Below are positions 3,681 through 64,000 of a DNA stretch of 64,000 nucleotides, one piece after another. The notes beneath the pieces are model-generated. The model was not told the origin of the DNA, ran no database searches, and worked only from the letters and a program-made list of their open reading frames with translations. Source of the DNA: Acidimicrobiia bacterium. GTDB taxonomy: Bacteria; Actinomycetota; Acidimicrobiia; Spongiisociales; UBA5794. The number at the start of each line of letters is the position of its first letter. The stretch's first letter is position 1. The position numbers and the translations under genes were made by a program. The stretch covers positions 1,155 to 65,154 of the forward strand of contig JBPCMS010000003.1 in NCBI GenBank assembly GCA_051002015.1, in the 5' to 3' direction.

Positions 3681-4732
3681 TCGACCGCCTCGTGGAGCGG
3701 ATGCTGGCCGGTGACGTCCCGCTGGAGCGGGGTGCGGTCGAGGACGCCGTCCGGAACCTGCTCCCCGAGGAGGCGCCGCTGGCGCCGACCGGTGTCGCCG
3801 TCGAGGTGGCCGACGCCCTGGTGGGGCTTGGTGCGCTCGAGCCGCTGCTGTCCGATCCCTCGATCAGCGATGTCCTGGTCAACGCCGACGGATCGGTCTG
3901 GATCGAGCGTGCCGGGTCGCTGCTCCGCAGCCCGATCCGCTTCGCCCCGCCCGGGCAGGTCACCGCCGCCGTCGAACGGGTCATCGCCCCCCTGGGGCTT
4001 CGTCTCGACCGCTCCAGCCCGGCGGTCGATGCCCGGCTCCCGGACGGGTCTCGGCTCCACGCCATCATCCCCCCGGCATCGGTGGACGGCCCGGTGGTGG
4101 CCATCAGGCGGTTCACGGCGGCGGTGGTCGACCTCGACGGCCTGGTCGCCGCCGGCGGCGCCGACGACGAAGCCGCCGCCCTGCTCAGGGGGGCGGTGGC
4201 GGAGCGGCGCAACCTGCTGGTGTCGGGGGGAACCGGGTCGGGCAAGACCACCCTGCTCAACATCCTCGCCGGTGAGATCCCGGCCACCGAGCGAGTGGTG
4301 GTCATCGAGGATTCGGCCGAGCTCAAGGCGACCGGCCACATGGTCCGGCTGGAAGCGCGCCCGCCCAACGCCGAAGGGGCGGGCGAGATCACCCTGCGCA
4401 CGCTGGTCCGCCATGCCCTCAGGCTCCGTCCCGACCGCATCGTGGTCGGCGAGGTACGGGGGCCCGAGGCGCTCGACATGATCCAGGCGATCAACACCGG
4501 TCACGCCGGATCGATGTCGACCGTCCACGCCAACGGCCCCGACGAGGCGATGTGGCGGCTGGAGACGCTGGCGCTGTCGGGCCGGGGTGCGCTTGCCGCC
4601 GAGACCGTCAGACGCCAGCTGTGGAGCGCCCTCGATGTCGTCGTCCACCTCGACCGGTCCCGGGGGCGCAGGCGGGTGGCGGCGATCGCCGACGTCGGCG
4701 ACAAGGTTCTCCAGGTCAGGTGGTCGTCGTGA
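3671..4732 (+). CDS. tadA: Tad/Flp pilus assembly ATPase TadA/CpaF
   Basis: LVSGGTGSGKTTLLN (Walker A), VVIEDSAELK, RPDRIVVGEVRGPEA, INTGHAGSMSTVHAN. The CpaF-type N-terminal part is ...GALEPLLSDPSISDVLVNADGSVWIE. The start is GTG overlapping the upstream stop. Confidence 0.85.
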   Translation: MAVIDRLVERMLAGDVPLERGAVEDAVRNLLPEEAPLAPTGVAVEVADALVGLGALEPLLSDPSISDVLVNADGSVWIERAGSLLRSPIRFAPPGQVTAAVERVIAPLGLRLDRSSPAVDARLPDGSRLHAIIPPASVDGPVVAIRRFTAAVVDLDGLVAAGGADDEAAALLRGAVAERRNLLVSGGTGSGKTTLLNILAGEIPATERVVVIEDSAELKATGHMVRLEARPPNAEGAGEITLRTLVRHALRLRPDRIVVGEVRGPEALDMIQAINTGHAGSMSTVHANGPDEAMWRLETLALSGRGALAAETVRRQLWSALDVVVHLDRSRGRRRVAAIADVGDKVLQVRWSS

Positions 4733-12833: not shown

Positions 12834-14066
12834 ATGGACGCTCGGATCATCCTGGTACGACACGGCGAGACCGGCGCCAACCTGGCCGGTGTCTGGCAGG
12901 GGGCGACCGACACCGCCCTCTCCGAACGGGGCGAGCTTCAGGTGCGGCGGCTCGGCGACCGCATCGCCGGTGACCCGCCCGACCTGGTGGTGGCCTCGGA
13001 CCTGGGTCGAGCCGTCACCACGGCGGCGGCGCTGGGTCTGCCGTTCGAGACCGATCCCCGGTGGCGCGAACCGGATGTGGGGGTGTGGGAGGGGATCTCG
13101 TTCACCGAGATCCGCCGCCACCACGCCGACGACCTCGCCGCTCTCGAACGGGGTGACGATGTCGCCATCGGGGGTGGCGAGCGGCTTTCGAGCGTCGCCG
13201 CCCGCACCCTCGAGGCCTTCGAGCACCTCGCCGCTCAGGTCGGGCCGGGGGGCACCGCCCTGGTGGTGAGTCACGGGGTGGCCCTCACCGCCCTGGTGGC
13301 CGAGCTGCTCGGGCTGGCCCGCCCGGCGCCGTTGCGGCTGATGAGCAACACCGGGGTGGCCACCGTCGCCATTGGCGACCGCGGTGTCCAGCTCTCGTCG
13401 TACAACGACACCGCTCACCTCGCAGACGACCCGCCACGGCGAGCGGGCGAGACGGACGTCGTGCTGATCCGCCACGGCGAGACGGCGGCGAACGTGGAGC
13501 AGCGCTGGCAGGGTCACGGCGACTGGCCCCTCAACGAGGTGGGCACCGCCCAGGCGGCCGGCGCCGCCGCCGGGGTTCCCCAGCTCGACGCCCTGTTCAC
13601 CTCGCCGCTGCTCCGGGCCCGTCACACCGCCGAGACCATCGGCGTCGCCCAGGGTCTGGAACCGCTGGTTGTCGACGACCTCAAGGAGATCGGGTTCGGT
13701 GAGTGGGAGAACCTCACCTCGGGTGAGATCGCCGCCGTCGCCCCCGACCTGTGGCACCGGCTGATGTCAGGCGAGGACATCGTCCGGGGCAGCACCGGCG
13801 AGACCTTCACCGGGGCCAGGGCACGGATGACGGCCGCCATCGACTCGATCGTCGCCGGGCAAGCCGAGCGGGTGGTCGGGGTGGTCAGCCACGGCACGGC
13901 GACCAGCGCATACGTCACCGGGCTGCTCGGGCTGAGCTACGCCGATCGTCCCCGGCTCCGCTCGCTGGGGAACACCGCTCTGGGGAGGATCGCCTTCACC
14001 GGGCGCGGGCCGATGGTGGTGACCTGGAACACCGGACGCCATCTGGATGGGGGCGGGCGCCGGTGA
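12834..14066 (+). CDS. Tandem-duplicated histidine phosphatase (phosphoglycerate-mutase-like) protein
   Basis: Two RHGE catalytic motifs: IILVRHGETGANL and VVLIRHGETAANV. Confidence 0.75.
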   Translation: MDARIILVRHGETGANLAGVWQGATDTALSERGELQVRRLGDRIAGDPPDLVVASDLGRAVTTAAALGLPFETDPRWREPDVGVWEGISFTEIRRHHADDLAALERGDDVAIGGGERLSSVAARTLEAFEHLAAQVGPGGTALVVSHGVALTALVAELLGLARPAPLRLMSNTGVATVAIGDRGVQLSSYNDTAHLADDPPRRAGETDVVLIRHGETAANVEQRWQGHGDWPLNEVGTAQAAGAAAGVPQLDALFTSPLLRARHTAETIGVAQGLEPLVVDDLKEIGFGEWENLTSGEIAAVAPDLWHRLMSGEDIVRGSTGETFTGARARMTAAIDSIVAGQAERVVGVVSHGTATSAYVTGLLGLSYADRPRLRSLGNTALGRIAFTGRGPMVVTWNTGRHLDGGGRR

Positions 14067-15469: not shown

Positions 15470-18099
15470 TGCCAAGCAAGCTCGTCATCGTCGAGTCGCC
15501 CGCCAAGGCCCGCACCATTGCCGGTTACCTCGGCAAGGGCTTTGTCGTGGAGTCGTCGATCGGGCATATCCGGGACCTCCCCGGCTCGGCATCCGACATC
15601 CCCGCCGCCTTCAAGGGTGAGCCGTGGGCCCGGCTCGGGGTCGACGTGGAGAACGACTTCAAGCCGCTCTACGTGGTTCCCGCCGACAAGAAGAAGCAGG
15701 TCACCAAGCTCAAGCAGCTCCTCAAGGACGCAGATGAGGTGTACCTCGCCACCGACGAGGACCGCGAGGGGGAGTCGATCGCCTGGCATCTGCTCGAGGT
15801 GCTCAACCCGAAGCAGCCGGTCCACCGCATGGTGTTCCACGAGATCACCCCCGGTGCCATCCACGAGGCGCTGGAGCATCCCCGCCAGCTCGACCGACGC
15901 CTGGTGGACGCCCAGGAGGCGCGGCGCATCCTCGACCGGCTCTACGGATACGAGGTGTCCCCGGTGCTGTGGCGCAAGGTGCGCCAGGGGCTCTCCGCCG
16001 GCCGGGTCCAGTCCCCCGCCACCAGGATCATCGTCGACCGGGAGCGGGAGCGGATGGCCTTCGTCAGCGCCTCGTACTGGGGGCTGACCGGGACCTTCAC
16101 CGTCGGGGACGACCCCACCTCCTTCGAGGCGGCGCTGGCCACCATCGACGGCGCGCGGGTGGCAACCGGTAAGGACTTCGCCGACGACGGGTCGGCCAAG
16201 ACCAGGAAGACGTCGCGGCTGGTGCTCGACGAGGCGGCCGCCACCGGGTTGGCCGACGGCCTCCGGGACGCGGACTTCACCGTCGCCTCGGTGGAGGCCA
16301 AGCCGTACACCAGACGGCCATACCCGCCGTTCCGCACCTCGACGCTGCAGCAGGAGGCGAACCGCAAGCTCCGCTTCGCCGCTCGCCGGGCGATGTCTGC
16401 GGCGCAGCGGCTCTACGAGGCCGGGTACATCACCTACATGCGCACCGACTCGATCACGCTGTCGACCTCCGCCATCGAGGCCGCCCGCAGCCTGGTCGCC
16501 GACCGCTACGGGCCGTCGTACCTCCCGGACAAGCCGCGGGTGTACACCAGCACCGTCAGGAACGCCCAGGAGGCGCACGAGGCCATCCGCCCCGCCGGCG
16601 ACCGTTTCACCGATCCCGACTCCGTGGCCGGGGCCGTTGGACCGGGTTCGGACGAGGCGAGGCTGTACGATCTGATCTGGAAGCGGACCGTGGCCTCGCA
16701 GATGAGGGACGCCAAGGGGGAGAGCATCGCCGCCCGGCTGGCGGCCACCACCGCCGACGGTCGCCGCATCGAGTTCGCCGCCTCGGGGCTGGCCATCACC
16801 TTCCCCGGGTTCCTCCGTGCCTACGTCGAGGGGCGGGACGACCCCAACGCCGCTCTCGACGACCAGGAACGGCCGCTCCCCCCGATGCGCACCGGCGACC
16901 CCGCCTCCGCCGTCGCCATCGCCGCCGAGGGCCACGAGACCAAGCCGCCCGTCCGCTACACCGAGGCCTCTCTGGTCAAGCGGCTCGAGGACCTCGGGAT
17001 CGGGCGGCCGTCGACTTACGCCTCGATCATCTCCACCATCCAGGACCGGGGCTACGTCTTCAAGAAGGGGACGGCCCTGGTCCCCACCTTCACCGCCTTT
17101 GCCACCGTCGGGCTGCTCGAGACCCACTTCGAGGACTTGGTCGACTACGCCTTCACCGCCCGCATGGAGGACGACCTCGACGACATCGCCGGCGGCGACA
17201 AGGAGGCGATCCCCTGGCTCAAGCGGTTCTACTTCGGCAACGGCCACAAGGGACTCCACGACCTGGTGCAGGGCAACCTCGACGCCATCGACCCCCGGCT
17301 GGTCAACGCCATCCCCATCGGTGTCGACGAGAACGGGGAGCCGGTGGTGGCCAGGGTGGGCCGGTACGGCCCCTACCTGAAGCGGGGAGACGACTCGGCC
17401 AGCATTCCCGAGGACCTGGCCCCGGACGAGCTGACCATCGAGCGTGCGGTCGAGCTGCTCTCGATGCCTTCAGGAGACCGGGAGCTGGGCCACGACCCCG
17501 ACACCGGCGAGGTGGTGACGCTCCGCCACGGGCGCTACGGCCCGTACGTCCAGCTCGGCGACGCCGATCCGGACGCCAAGCCGAAGCAGACCCCGAAGCG
17601 GTCGTCGCTTTTCAGGTCCATGGCGGCCGAGGCGCTGAGCCTCGACGAGGCCCTGATGCTGCTCCGCATCCCGAGGGTTGTCGGCGAGCACCCCGACGGG
17701 GGCGAGGTCACCGCCCTCAACGGCCGCTACGGCCCGTATCTCCAGTGGGGAAAGGAGACCCGCAGCCTGGAGACCGAGAATGAGCTGCTCACCATCACGC
17801 TGGAGGACGCCGTGGCCAAGCTGGCCGCCCCCAAGCAGCGGGGCCGCCGGACGGCCGCCTCGTTGCGCCAGCTCGGCGCCGCCCCGGACGGGAAGACCAT
17901 CCACGTCAGGGAGGGCAGGTTCGGACCGTACGTGACCGACGGCGAGATCAACGCATCGCTGCGGGTGGCGGACACGGTTGAGGGCATCACCCTGGAGCGC
18001 GCCGTAGAGCTGATCGAGGAGCGCAGGGCCAAGGGCCCGGCGGAACCGAGGACCGCGGCCAAGCCTCGGCGCAAGAAGCCGGCGAGCCGGAAGAAGTGA
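15469..18099 (+). CDS. topA: DNA topoisomerase I (actinobacterial type with repeated C-terminal domains and a basic tail)
   Basis: MPSKLVIVESPAKARTIAGYLG, TOPRIM EGESIAWHL. Basic Lys/Arg C-terminal tail. Confidence 0.92.
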   Translation: MPSKLVIVESPAKARTIAGYLGKGFVVESSIGHIRDLPGSASDIPAAFKGEPWARLGVDVENDFKPLYVVPADKKKQVTKLKQLLKDADEVYLATDEDREGESIAWHLLEVLNPKQPVHRMVFHEITPGAIHEALEHPRQLDRRLVDAQEARRILDRLYGYEVSPVLWRKVRQGLSAGRVQSPATRIIVDRERERMAFVSASYWGLTGTFTVGDDPTSFEAALATIDGARVATGKDFADDGSAKTRKTSRLVLDEAAATGLADGLRDADFTVASVEAKPYTRRPYPPFRTSTLQQEANRKLRFAARRAMSAAQRLYEAGYITYMRTDSITLSTSAIEAARSLVADRYGPSYLPDKPRVYTSTVRNAQEAHEAIRPAGDRFTDPDSVAGAVGPGSDEARLYDLIWKRTVASQMRDAKGESIAARLAATTADGRRIEFAASGLAITFPGFLRAYVEGRDDPNAALDDQERPLPPMRTGDPASAVAIAAEGHETKPPVRYTEASLVKRLEDLGIGRPSTYASIISTIQDRGYVFKKGTALVPTFTAFATVGLLETHFEDLVDYAFTARMEDDLDDIAGGDKEAIPWLKRFYFGNGHKGLHDLVQGNLDAIDPRLVNAIPIGVDENGEPVVARVGRYGPYLKRGDDSASIPEDLAPDELTIERAVELLSMPSGDRELGHDPDTGEVVTLRHGRYGPYVQLGDADPDAKPKQTPKRSSLFRSMAAEALSLDEALMLLRIPRVVGEHPDGGEVTALNGRYGPYLQWGKETRSLETENELLTITLEDAVAKLAAPKQRGRRTAASLRQLGAAPDGKTIHVREGRFGPYVTDGEINASLRVADTVEGITLERAVELIEERRAKGPAEPRTAAKPRRKKPASRKK

Positions 18100-25679: not shown

Positions 25680-25761
25680 TCCGCCGGGCAGGGCTCCTCA
25701 TCCGCCTGGCAGGGCTCCTCATCCGCCCGGCAGGGCCGGGGCTACACTCGCCACCCTTCCG

Positions 25762-25834
25762 GCCGGAGTAGCTCAGTCGGCAGAGCGACGCACTCGTAAT
25801 GCGTAGGTCAGGGGTTCGATTCCCCTCTCCGGCT
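25762..25834 (+). tRNA. tRNA-Thr (anticodon CGT)
   Basis: Cloverleaf: acceptor GCCGGAG/CTCCGGC, D-arm GTAGCTCAGTCGGCAGAGC, anticodon loop CT-CGT-AA, T-arm AGGGGTTCGATTCCCCT. No CCA is encoded. Confidence 0.85.
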
Positions 25835-25851
25835 CCCTCAATGCCGCCGTT

Positions 25852-62233: not shown

Positions 62234-62974
62234 ATGAACGGCGACGGGTACGGCGCCGATGTCGAAGGCTTCCACGCCGTCACCGAGGCGGTCGCCGTCG
62301 GGCGGGTCCGGCGGCTCACGGTGGAGAGCGCCCGCCTGCGCCACGATGACTACCAGCGGCTGGTCGCCGCCGCCGAGGCTGGAGGCGCCGCCATCACCAG
62401 GGTGGAGGACACCCGCCCCCTCGCCGCCACCGGGGCGCCCCAAGGGGTGGTTGCCGCCTGCCGGCCGCTCGCCTACCTCGATCTCGACGAAGCCGTCGGT
62501 CTCGCCGACCCCGCCGTTGTGCTCGTCCTCGACCACCTGCAGGACCCGCGCAACGTCGGGGCGCTGGCCCGCTCCGCCCGGGCCACCGGGGTTCCGGTGA
62601 TGGCGGTCCCGGGGCGCCGCTCGGCTCCGATCGGCGCCACCGCCTTCAAGGCCGCCGCCGGAGCGCTCGAACATGTCGCCGTCGCCCAGGTGGGATCGGT
62701 CGCCGACGCCCTGGTGCGGCTGCGTAGCGCCGGCGTCTGGCTGGTCGGGCTCGACGGCGCCGCCGAACGGTCGATCCTCGGGCTCGACCTGCTCACCGAG
62801 CCCGTCGCCATCGTGCTCGGCGCCGAGGGCGAGGGGATCTCCCGGCTGGTTGCCGACCGGCTCGACGTGGTCGCCCGCATCCCGATGCAACCGGGGGTGG
62901 AGAGCCTCAACGCGTCGGTGGCAGGGGCCATCGCCATGTTCGAGATGGCCCGGATCCGCGGCTGGATAAGCTGA
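62234..62974 (+). CDS. rlmB: 23S rRNA (guanosine-2'-O)-methyltransferase RlmB (SpoU/TrmH family)
   Basis: L30e-like N-terminus (EGFHAVTEAVAVGRV) and SpoU motifs (LVLDHLQDPRNVGALARSA...GVESLNASVAGAIAMFE). Confidence 0.8.
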   Translation: MNGDGYGADVEGFHAVTEAVAVGRVRRLTVESARLRHDDYQRLVAAAEAGGAAITRVEDTRPLAATGAPQGVVAACRPLAYLDLDEAVGLADPAVVLVLDHLQDPRNVGALARSARATGVPVMAVPGRRSAPIGATAFKAAAGALEHVAVAQVGSVADALVRLRSAGVWLVGLDGAAERSILGLDLLTEPVAIVLGAEGEGISRLVADRLDVVARIPMQPGVESLNASVAGAIAMFEMARIRGWIS

Positions 62975-62984
62975 CCACGCGTCT

Positions 62985-63028
62985 GCTGGCGTAGCTCAGT
63001 TGGTCAGAGCAGCTGATTTGTAATCAGA
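62985..63028 (+). pseudogene. 5' fragment of a tRNA-Thr(UGU) gene (acceptor 5' strand, D-arm, anticodon arm only). The 3' half is absent.
   Basis: GCTGGCG-TA-GCTCAGTTGGTCAGAGC-A-GCTGA-TTTGTAA-TCAGA, then no T-arm (GGTTCGA) and no matching acceptor 3' strand anywhere downstream. Confidence 0.5.
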
Positions 63029-63060
63029 CACACCCCGATAACAGGGTCAGGGCCGGACCC

Positions 63061-63114
63061 GTTGCAACCATTGACGATCCGCCCGAAACCCTTGCAACCG
63101 TTGACGATCCGCCC
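63061..63114 (+). repeat. Two tandem 24-nt direct repeats (GTTGCAACCATTGACGATCCGCCC / CTTGCAACCGTTGACGATCCGCCC, 30-nt period) immediately after the truncated tRNA
   Basis: Read directly; 22/24 identical. Candidate recombinase arm-type or regulator binding sites. Confidence 0.6.
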
Positions 63115-63325
63115 CCGCCAAGTCTCTCCCTAGCTTTCACCCGGTTTCATGGCTTCTGTCTCGGCTCGCGTCCCGCGCGCGTCCCGCGGGGGCACGGCGG
63201 CTCGGTGTGGTGTACTCTCACCGCCGGGATAGCCCTCGGGGTAGCTCCTCGAAGGCGACAAGGCGGGAGACCTGTCCCCGCCTTCCCGGCACACCAAGAC
63301 AGGGCACCAACAGGAGGTGCCGCCG

Positions 63326-63517
63326 ATGACCACCGCACACCAGCAAGACCGCGAAACCCAAGAGCAGCGAGCCGCACTCGCTCTCAACGAGCTCGGCGCC
63401 GCCGTCGACGCCATCCACGCCGCCTGCGACTTGCTTGGCGTGACCCCGGCCGGGCTCGGCTTGGAACGAGCCCTGGAGGACTTGGCGGCGGTGCTCGCTG
63501 TCGCCTACCGGCGGTAA
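63326..63517 (+). CDS. Hypothetical small helical protein (63 aa)
   Basis: AGGAGG Shine-Dalgarno 7 nt before the ATG (MTTAHQQDRETQEQRAALALNELGAAV...). GTG 63317 is an alternative start. Confidence 0.4.
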   Translation: MTTAHQQDRETQEQRAALALNELGAAVDAIHAACDLLGVTPAGLGLERALEDLAAVLAVAYRR

Positions 63518-63575
63518 ACGGGCCCTACCCACCCGCGCAAGAATCGCGGGTGTGAATTGCGGCCGCTGCCGGCTG

Positions 63576-64000
63576 TCACACCTCGTAGACCTTCATTACT
63601 TCGTCGCCGTAGTGGTTGATGACCTTGACTGCGATGCGGTTGGTGTCGGGCTTGGGGAAGGGGCGGCTGGTGGTGGAGTAGAGGGTGGCCCAGGCGTCCT
63701 CGTCGATGTCTGCTCTGAGGGTCTTCTGGAGGCGTTCGTAGGGCTGGTCGCCGCCGGTGAAGTAGGCGTGGCGAACGAAGAAGCTCTCCTGGTTGTACTC
63801 GGTGTCGATGAACCAGCAGGCGATGTCATCCGTCGAGTTGGAGCGGACCTCACCGGTGGTGGGGTCGTAGACGTCGACGCCGCGCAGCTCCACGACCAGC
63901 TCGCCACCCTCGTCCTTGACGGTGACGTCGGGTTCCCCGAAGACCGTGAACAGGTTGCCGGCGCCGGTCTTCTTCAACAGGTCGTCACCCATCATCAGGT
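63576..64000 (-). CDS. C-terminal part of a DNA methyltransferase (Type III Mod-like); the gene continues beyond the window end
   Basis: The ORF is open to the window edge. C-terminal ...WFIDTEYNQESFFVRHAYFTGG...RIAVKVINHYGDEVMKVYEV resembles the conserved C-terminal domain of Mod-type N6-adenine methyltransferases. GC is about 60% against about 72% for the backbone. Confidence 0.45.
   Translation of the reverse strand, partial: LMMGDDLLKKTGAGNLFTVFGEPDVTVKDEGGELVVELRGVDVYDPTTGEVRSNSTDDIACWFIDTEYNQESFFVRHAYFTGGDQPYERLQKTLRADIDEDAWATLYSTTSRPFPKPDTNRIAVKVINHYGDEVMKVYEV

Follow-up and report, generated by a model that had tools for sequence, protein, structure and literature searches.

A 5′ tRNA-Thr fragment after rlmB marks the edge of integrated mobile DNA in an uncultured Acidimicrobiia bacterium

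Elements that integrate into tRNA genes in the canonical way regenerate the gene and leave a 3′ tRNA fragment at their far end. The locus described here raises the question of how a tRNA-Thr(UGU) gene came to be left as a 5′ fragment, next to the rlmB gene, on the border between conserved chromosomal backbone and mobile DNA. It lies in a stretch of 64,000 nucleotides (nt) of high-GC DNA from an uncultured Acidimicrobiia bacterium (contig JBPCMS010000003.1; the whole stretch is called the window), and the analysis is centered on its right end, positions 62234 to 64000. On balance, we favor the answer that the border is an attL-type junction (left attachment site), made by recombination in the anticodon loop through a short common core that did not rebuild the tRNA.

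The last gene of the conserved backbone is rlmB (62234-62974, + strand), encoding a SpoU-family rRNA 2′-O-methyltransferase (Pfam SpoU_methylase, E 2.2e-35; SpoU_sub_bind, E 2.3e-09). The gene order ispF, GDPD, cysS, rlmB is common to the window and two related contigs, L001 and L077, in agreement with a preliminary description of this DNA, which had let the backbone end at rlmB. Downstream of it is a 5′ fragment of tRNA-Thr(UGU) (62985-63027, + strand; GCTGGCGTAGCTCAGTTGGTCAGAGCAGCTGATTTGTAATCAG from 62985 on), which spans tRNA positions 1-42 and comprises the acceptor 5′ strand, the D arm, and the anticodon arm, with the anticodon TGT at 63019-63021. The T arm and the 3′ acceptor strand are missing, and no copy of the tRNA 3′ half, at three or fewer mismatches, is found within the whole window. 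When compared by BLAST with intact tRNA-Thr(UGU) genes of relatives, only 62985-63027 matches (42/43 to L008, E 1.6e-17), and the alignments to 15 or more relatives, at 42/43 identity or slightly less, all stop at 63027. This is the fourth base of the 3′ strand of the anticodon stem, in the stem's last base pair but one, and the following base (tRNA position 43) is A where the tRNA has C. The fragment proposed in the preliminary description is thus real, at a size of 43 nt and not 44 nt.

A complete tRNA at 62985 was considered and is ruled out. ARAGORN makes no call there, the sole tRNA of the window being tRNA-Thr(CGT) at 25761-25837, and the Rfam tRNA model gives 62985-63043 a score of 27.9 bits, short of the gathering score of 29; it fits the acceptor 5′ strand, D arm, and anticodon arm well and finds no T arm. 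Folding of 62985-63060 equals that of shuffled sequence (z-score 0.08). A functional tRNA gene, which would have spoken against an island edge, is therefore not seen at this place.

To what, then, does the fragment correspond? A RlmB protein scan with one genome per species, in the GTDB species set, which does not include the genome of the window, gave 72 loci, the best RlmB match to the window being 78%. Intact tRNA-Thr(UGU) lies 11-40 nt 3′ of rlmB in 14 other, more distant Acidimicrobiia loci, the synteny that the preliminary description had suggested looking for, and 62985-63027 is the remnant of the chromosomal gene that these relatives have kept whole at this locus. The two closest genomes (L005 and L006, RlmB 76-78% identical) have islands of about 7.1 and 3.3 kb at the same tRNA-Thr as the window junction. 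These islands have the canonical form, and the 3′ partial tRNA copy at the far end of each starts in the anticodon loop, at tRNA positions 33/34. The breakpoint of the window is about 10 nt from the crossover region used in L005 and L006, which points to site-specific recombination and not to random deletion. In L005 (OY970227.1, the closest complete genome), the tRNA-Thr linked to rlmB has a 4-nt insertion, TCAC, in the 3′ acceptor strand (L005:10752-11140), and this rlmB-adjacent copy is not recognized as a tRNA. Then come about 300 nt of very AT-rich DNA, against 70% GC in the genome as a whole, and the 3′ tRNA fragment of the L005 island lies at 17896-17937.

The DNA beside the fragment is itself conserved over a short distance. 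A 165-nt arm, here called X (63028-63192, + strand), is fixed next to the fragment and ends in a GC-rich hairpin. The same join of tRNA-Thr positions 1-42 to X, always adjacent, is found in L001, L077, L082, and L114, which represent four or more samples from several soil metagenomes, were put together by different assemblers, and have cysS/rlmB 96-97% identical to those of the window. Between the window and L077/L114, X is 90.4% identical, near the value for third codon positions of rlmB (92.7%), and thus behaves as neutrally drifting, vertically inherited DNA. Judged from these comparisons, we take the junction to be an old, vertically inherited scar in this species group and not a fresh insertion. 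Directly after X, three different sequences follow in different near-conspecific contigs. The window and L077 share a module, 80% identical between them, that consists of a structured RNA and a small open reading frame (ORF) and is called the RNA+ORF module below, and L114 has a pair of AGGTGACCAAC sites and then unrelated sequence. Relatives with the same sequence but ordinary genes downstream were not seen; the near-conspecific contigs carry different mobile-element DNA instead. Together with the islands of relatives at the same tRNA and the edge of a related element in L077, this variation bears out the earlier interpretation of the locus as the edge of integrated mobile DNA at a tRNA attachment site. 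The exact point at which the three related contigs diverge is the GC-rich hairpin at the end of X, which has a tandem GCGTCCCGCG motif (63170-63192, + strand) and may be a recombination site of its own.

Within X are two tandem direct repeats (63053-63082 and 63083-63112, + strand; 87% identical). The preliminary description had noticed them, with units of 24 nt; the units are 30 nt long. The pair starts about 25 nt from the putative core described below, is conserved in L077 and L114, and is a candidate for a pair of arm-type integrase binding sites. Other junctions of the same element family have repeat pairs of their own at the equivalent place, between core and RNA+ORF module (GGAACYCTTACAGGRCAAG twice in L078/L083 and AGGTGACCAAC twice in L097/L114), which supports the arm-type reading of the repeats in the window. 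A metagenome scan for the repeat motif gave 13 matches, of which 12 are chance matches inside unrelated genes and one (L114) is the same junction; the scan of IMG/VR with this motif gave no match, and no GenBank phage has a DNA match to 63028-63575. X was also compared with the island arms in L005 and L006, and homology is rejected, since the shared motif GAAACCCTTG was found by eye only and the similarity is not significant (z ≤2.6).

We propose that a tyrosine-type integrase would have recombined a site on the element with the anticodon loop of the tRNA-Thr gene. The putative common core of about 10 bp (TTGTAATCAG, 63018-63027, + strand) comprises the anticodon loop and the 3′ strand of the anticodon stem. 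Its right limit is the end of identity to the native tRNA (63027), with the element side beginning no later than 63028; its left limit is inferred from positions 33/34, where the 3′ copies of L005/L006 begin, and the core can be at most the 16-nt anticodon arm. With so short a shared core, the element would bring no tRNA 3′ half, so the gene would not be rebuilt. X would be the arm of the element, bearing the 30-nt pair of arm-type sites, and the DNA to the right of X would turn over by recombination among related small satellite-like elements (encoding integrase, excisionase, primase/helicase, and capsid). Beyond the window would then follow, in this order, the Res gene of a restriction-modification (R-M) operon, more element genes, the integrase, an arm with TTGCAACCRTTGACGATCC sites, and TTGTAATCAG followed by CAGGTCG...CGCCAGC and the native downstream DNA.

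A complete related element, with the RNA+ORF module at its edge, is available in L077. It is 8.6 kb long and encodes a 129-amino-acid (aa) protein, an HK97-type major capsid protein, a WhiB-like protein, an AAA_25 primase/helicase, an HTH_17 excisionase, and a tyrosine integrase (392 aa). Judging by its genes, this set resembles a phage satellite; the window itself has the shared edge module only. The flanks of the element do not match each other, one being the tRNA-Thr 5′ fragment (4532-4574) and the other a tRNA-Pro(GGG) 3′ fragment (13146-13229). The integrase end runs into a tRNA-Pro(GGG) 3′ part that starts in the anticodon loop and is followed by HSP20 and EVE genes, an arrangement reproduced in three contigs from the Joint Genome Institute (JGI). 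We had considered this far end as the missing half of the tRNA-Thr and rejected it for this reason, together with an 84-nt "tRNA-Arg(acg)" called there by ARAGORN, a false positive built on the tRNA-Pro fragment. Integrases 69-70% identical to that of L077 belong to canonical tRNA-Pro(GGG) elements, in which the integrase-distal end has an intact tRNA-Pro and each arm has GGTGACCAAC sites. These arm sites of the L077 integrase clade are not present in X. Since the L077 integrase is tRNA-Pro specific and its arm sites are missing from X, the Thr junction is not its product. L077 arose in one of two ways, by recombination of elements that sat at two tRNA loci or as an assembly path that runs through a repeat. 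More speculatively, its mismatched flanks could reflect a chromosome rearrangement between two tRNA loci, via the integrase or the elements themselves. In IMG/VR, a scan with the L077 integrase gave no match, a capsid scan gave only relatives of ≤50% identity, and a scan with the tRNA 3′ half gave tRNA matches only; none of the capsid or tRNA matches has the RNA+ORF module.

Several observations weigh against the short-core proposal. No integrase, attR (right attachment site), or attP (attachment site of the element) was seen for the Thr junction, the public contig ending 283 nt past the window, and there is no tRNA-Thr gene in the L001, L077 (complete 8.6-kb element), L082, or L114 loci. The L077 integrase is specific for tRNA-Pro(GGG), so the L077 element cannot be taken as the maker of the Thr junction, and there has clearly been rearrangement since. 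Moreover, X has no significant similarity to the island arms of L005/L006, and the left limit of the core is taken over from those islands. In a rival history, canonical integration rebuilt the tRNA, and a later deletion or illegitimate recombination removed the tRNA 3′ half, the integrase, and part of the element. The region is mosaic, with the three different sequences after X in near-conspecific contigs; the flanks of L077 are mismatched, with a Thr 5′ part on one side and a Pro 3′ part on the other; the rebuilt tRNA of L005 already has its 4-nt acceptor-strand insertion; and no integrase is adjacent to the junction. However, the break is no more than 1 nt away from the edge of the anticodon stem and some 10 nt from where relatives have their crossovers, the repeat pair stands at the spacing expected of arm sites beside a core, and by our own estimate a random deletion would end there with a probability of about 3/76. 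We therefore regard this history as possible but doubtful.

The geometry of the anticodon arm suggests another way to obtain a 5′ fragment, because CTGA-TTTGTAA-TCAG is nearly palindromic: the stem arms are identical both ways, and the loop TTTGTAA matches its own reverse complement at 4/7 positions. Recombination there might have restored the 5′ part or occurred in the wrong orientation. In a variant of this idea, the integrase-side arm of the element carries the tRNA 5′ half, so that an intact tRNA-Thr lies at the far end and the fragment in the window is the displaced copy. Members of the family do face either way with respect to the tRNA that they target (L078 at tRNA-Leu versus L086 at tRNA-Arg), but the far end was not observed, X is not significantly similar in either orientation to the arms of relatives' islands, and no such case was found in the literature searched, which leaves this explanation rather improbable. 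An assembly artifact, in which a contig chimeric at a repeated element joined the tRNA fragment to the DNA that follows, would be in keeping with the repetition of the element family in these metagenomes, with the break of L078-L082 and L096 at the same point in one gene, and with the end of the public contig just past the window. Against it, the identical join of Thr positions 1-42 to X is present in the window, L001, L077, L082, and L114, from different samples and assemblers; L001 differs by 21 single-nucleotide polymorphisms in 10.7 kb and is thus an independent strain or sample; and a tRNA repeat collapsed in assembly would be read as a whole tRNA, not as a 5′ fragment. We consider an artifact very improbable. 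It is hardly credible, finally, that the 5′ half belongs to a functional unusual or split tRNA, completed downstream or in trans. A T-arm-like hairpin (GGGTC-AGGGCCG-GACCC) does lie at 63044-63060, but its loop lacks the T-loop consensus, the acceptor 3′ strand is absent, and the ARAGORN, Rfam, and folding results given above all count against a tRNA here.

Whichever history is correct, the loss of this gene has a consequence for translation. ACA codons are not readable by CGU or GGU isoacceptors, so the organism needs a working tRNA-Thr(UGU) elsewhere under each of these readings. That the only working copy is carried by the island to the right is unlikely. If true, mobile DNA bearing an R-M system could not be lost without killing the cell, a tRNA "addiction" imposed by a satellite-like island and fixed across a species group.

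How does the proposed short-core junction compare with known integration systems? Phages P22 and HP1 are examples of canonical integration into a tRNA gene with a crossover in the anticodon loop. Islands of this canonical type are catalogued by Islander (PMC4383910), and the junction in the window is like them in having a tRNA target at a conserved locus and the anticodon loop as crossover region. In contrast to these islands, in which the tRNA is regenerated and a 3′ fragment is left at the far end, the near end in the window is a 5′ fragment with no regenerated gene. The preliminary description was right that this departs from the canonical form, although a 5′ fragment is not without published precedent. 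In tRNA-dependent lysogeny, shown experimentally for mycobacteriophages and related actinobacteriophages (Fionnbharth, LeBron, and Gaia; Guerrero-Bustamante & Hatfull 2024, PMC10865867), the core measures 8-17 bp and has pairs of arm-type sites on its flanks, attL does not reconstitute the tRNA, and a phage-borne cognate tRNA keeps the lysogen alive. The window shares with these phages (PMC10865867) an Actinomycetota host, an attachment site (attB) overlapping a tRNA gene, an attL that keeps the tRNA 5′ part only and has no functional tRNA, a short core (probably about 10 nt here), and an arm-type repeat pair beside the core, seen on the visible side of the window. It differs in that no integrase, attR, or element-borne cognate tRNA is seen here, the complete element of L077 also being without a cognate tRNA; in that the neighboring DNA is like small satellite-like elements and not like a full prophage; and in that the junction is fixed across the species group, unlike that of a fresh lysogen.

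The satellite-like character of the neighboring DNA comes from the L077 element. Phage satellites of the phage-inducible chromosomal island (PICI) or capsid-forming PICI type have variable cargo slots. L077 is like them in its 8.6-kb element, with an integrase, an AlpA/HTH_17 excisionase, a primase/helicase, a WhiB-like regulator, a single major capsid gene, and a variable slot. By this gene content L077 is a candidate for such a satellite. Apart from the distant capsid matches given above, it has no relatives in IMG/VR or among GenBank phages, and the window has only the edge module and a methyltransferase gene.

In that module, the structured RNA (63222-63304, + strand) forms the leader of the small ORF and resembles Rfam int-alpA (RF02996; 34.5 bits against a gathering threshold of 35.8, E 4.4e-05). 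Its minimum free energy is -42.2 kcal/mol, a z-score of -3.76 against shuffles, and its Y-shaped fold is kept in four diverged copies, with three pairs changed on both sides (five sequences, too few for a firm covariation test). It shares with int-alpA a three-way fold with two inner hairpins, location in a mobile element, and an adjacent small gene. It differs from that family in scoring below the gathering threshold, in lying at the integrase-distal edge and not between int and alpA, and in that the ORF downstream is not an AlpA/HTH_17 protein; the L077 copy of the RNA gives no match to int-alpA at E ≤1. In the literature searched, the int-alpA RNA family is mentioned only for E. coli. The ORF itself (63326-63517, + strand; 63 aa), preceded by a Shine-Dalgarno sequence, AGGAGG, at 63311-63316, is the conserved edge gene of the element family, and the small ORF with a strong Shine-Dalgarno sequence that had been predicted is thus a gene with relatives. 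The protein has seven further cluster representatives besides that of the window, with relatives 63-87% identical, and the N-terminal 40 aa or so are invariant across all eight; Pfam, NCBIfam, PADLOC, and PHROGs have no match to it. Between this gene and the convergent methyltransferase gene, a GC-rich hairpin is predicted by folding (63530-63552, CACCCGCG...CGCGGGTG), which is possibly a bidirectional terminator; a scan for T-tract terminators does not pick it.

Wherever its context is readable, the 63-aa gene sits on the border between host and element genes. The module adjoins a tRNA-Leu(CAA) 3′ fragment on the opposite strand in L078-L081 and an intact tRNA-Arg(CCT) in L086-L091. In L083 (9700-9760), it adjoins a non-tRNA stem-loop, GCGGA-CAGCGAA-TCCGT, whose stem is the same as in the anticodon arm of tRNA-Leu, the target in L078, and which likewise stands 14 nt from the arm repeats; by this likeness it looks like a secondary attachment site. 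The gene after the 63-aa ORF varies by copy (a 129-aa ORF and capsid gene, an ECF [extracytoplasmic function] sigma factor, small ORFs, or the methyltransferase) and its place thus resembles a cargo slot. Six contigs from different samples (L078-L082 and L096) all stop inside the same 181-aa element gene, at the boundary of a segment whose protein sequence is 100% identical between copies at different tRNA loci.

In the window, this slot holds a type III-like (Mod) DNA methyltransferase gene, whose C-terminal part is seen (63576-64000, - strand), with its stop codon at 63576-63578, and which runs off the window. The tail together with 283 bases of the public contig matches positions 736-982 of 983 of PADLOC MTase_III (E 3.9e-76), in accordance with the Mod-like C-terminal part on the opposite strand that had been recognized earlier, and it has 7659 homologues, many of them named adenine-specific DNA methyltransferase. 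No GenBank phage has a protein match to it. Its full-length plasmid relatives (912-987 aa, 53-67% identical) are the last gene of an operon in 5/5 cases, and these operons start with an endonuclease of about 930-1040 aa, of the BPTD_3080 family in 4/5 and a type III R-M R/helicase subunit in 1/5. Because an endonuclease gene precedes Mod in all five, a Res gene is expected just beyond the window, and the methyltransferase gene most likely closes, by analogy, a res-mod (type III-like) R-M operon. The likeness to type III-like R-M operons (BPTD_3080 endonuclease, Mod of about 950 aa) rests on the C-terminal 247 positions of MTase_III, the catalytic domain and the expected Res gene lying beyond the contig. 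Since the nearest public contig stops 283 nt beyond the window (window-equivalent 64283), the cargo cannot be read; the last 10.7 kb of the window are 99.8% identical (21 mismatches) to the end of the contig CBFDJU010000099.1, from an NCBI metagenome-assembled genome. No other contig carries the exact 63-aa protein, and an exact search with the RlmB of the window gave no match. The cargo is probably an ordinary type III-like R-M system and not the novel defense system that the preliminary description had thought possible.

The shift in GC content at this gene is real in bulk, at 0.624 for 63576-64000, which is the 0.16th percentile among windows of the backbone (mean 0.707). It is a weak sign of foreign origin, since GC at third codon positions is host-like (0.908 against 0.903 in rlmB) and the drop thus reflects amino-acid composition, not foreign codon usage. 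Other copies of the methyltransferase family have neighborhoods consistent with mobile defense cargo, one in L004 beside a Prim-Pol/AAA_25 gene and an integrase fragment, with DarTG, and one in L002 beside a weak KwaA-like gene. Recurrent homologues of 253 or 387 aa were considered as a stand-alone family and rejected: at least in L002, the open frame continues upstream into the methyltransferase domain, where the sequence before homologue P0001 reads ...GRRWITIDTSR, which we take to be the C-terminal end of that domain. A stand-alone 351-aa homologue of the C-terminal region only was found in L116 (10001-11056), between TfoX_N and LepA genes in a housekeeping neighborhood, and may represent a remnant or else a domain protein in its own right.

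By itself, the window is an ordinary boundary of mobile DNA with an ordinary R-M gene, and the type of junction that we favor is already known; the bacterial group in which it is found is little studied. Island finders that seek only 3′ tRNA fragments ignore 5′ fragments, so islands of this kind would be missed or mis-bounded. If the short-core reading is right, integration that does not rebuild the tRNA would extend beyond the cultured actinobacteriophages described in 2024 to uncultured Acidimicrobiia, and possibly to small satellite-like elements. Such a junction could then persist as a stable chromosomal scar beside a hot spot for defense cargo.

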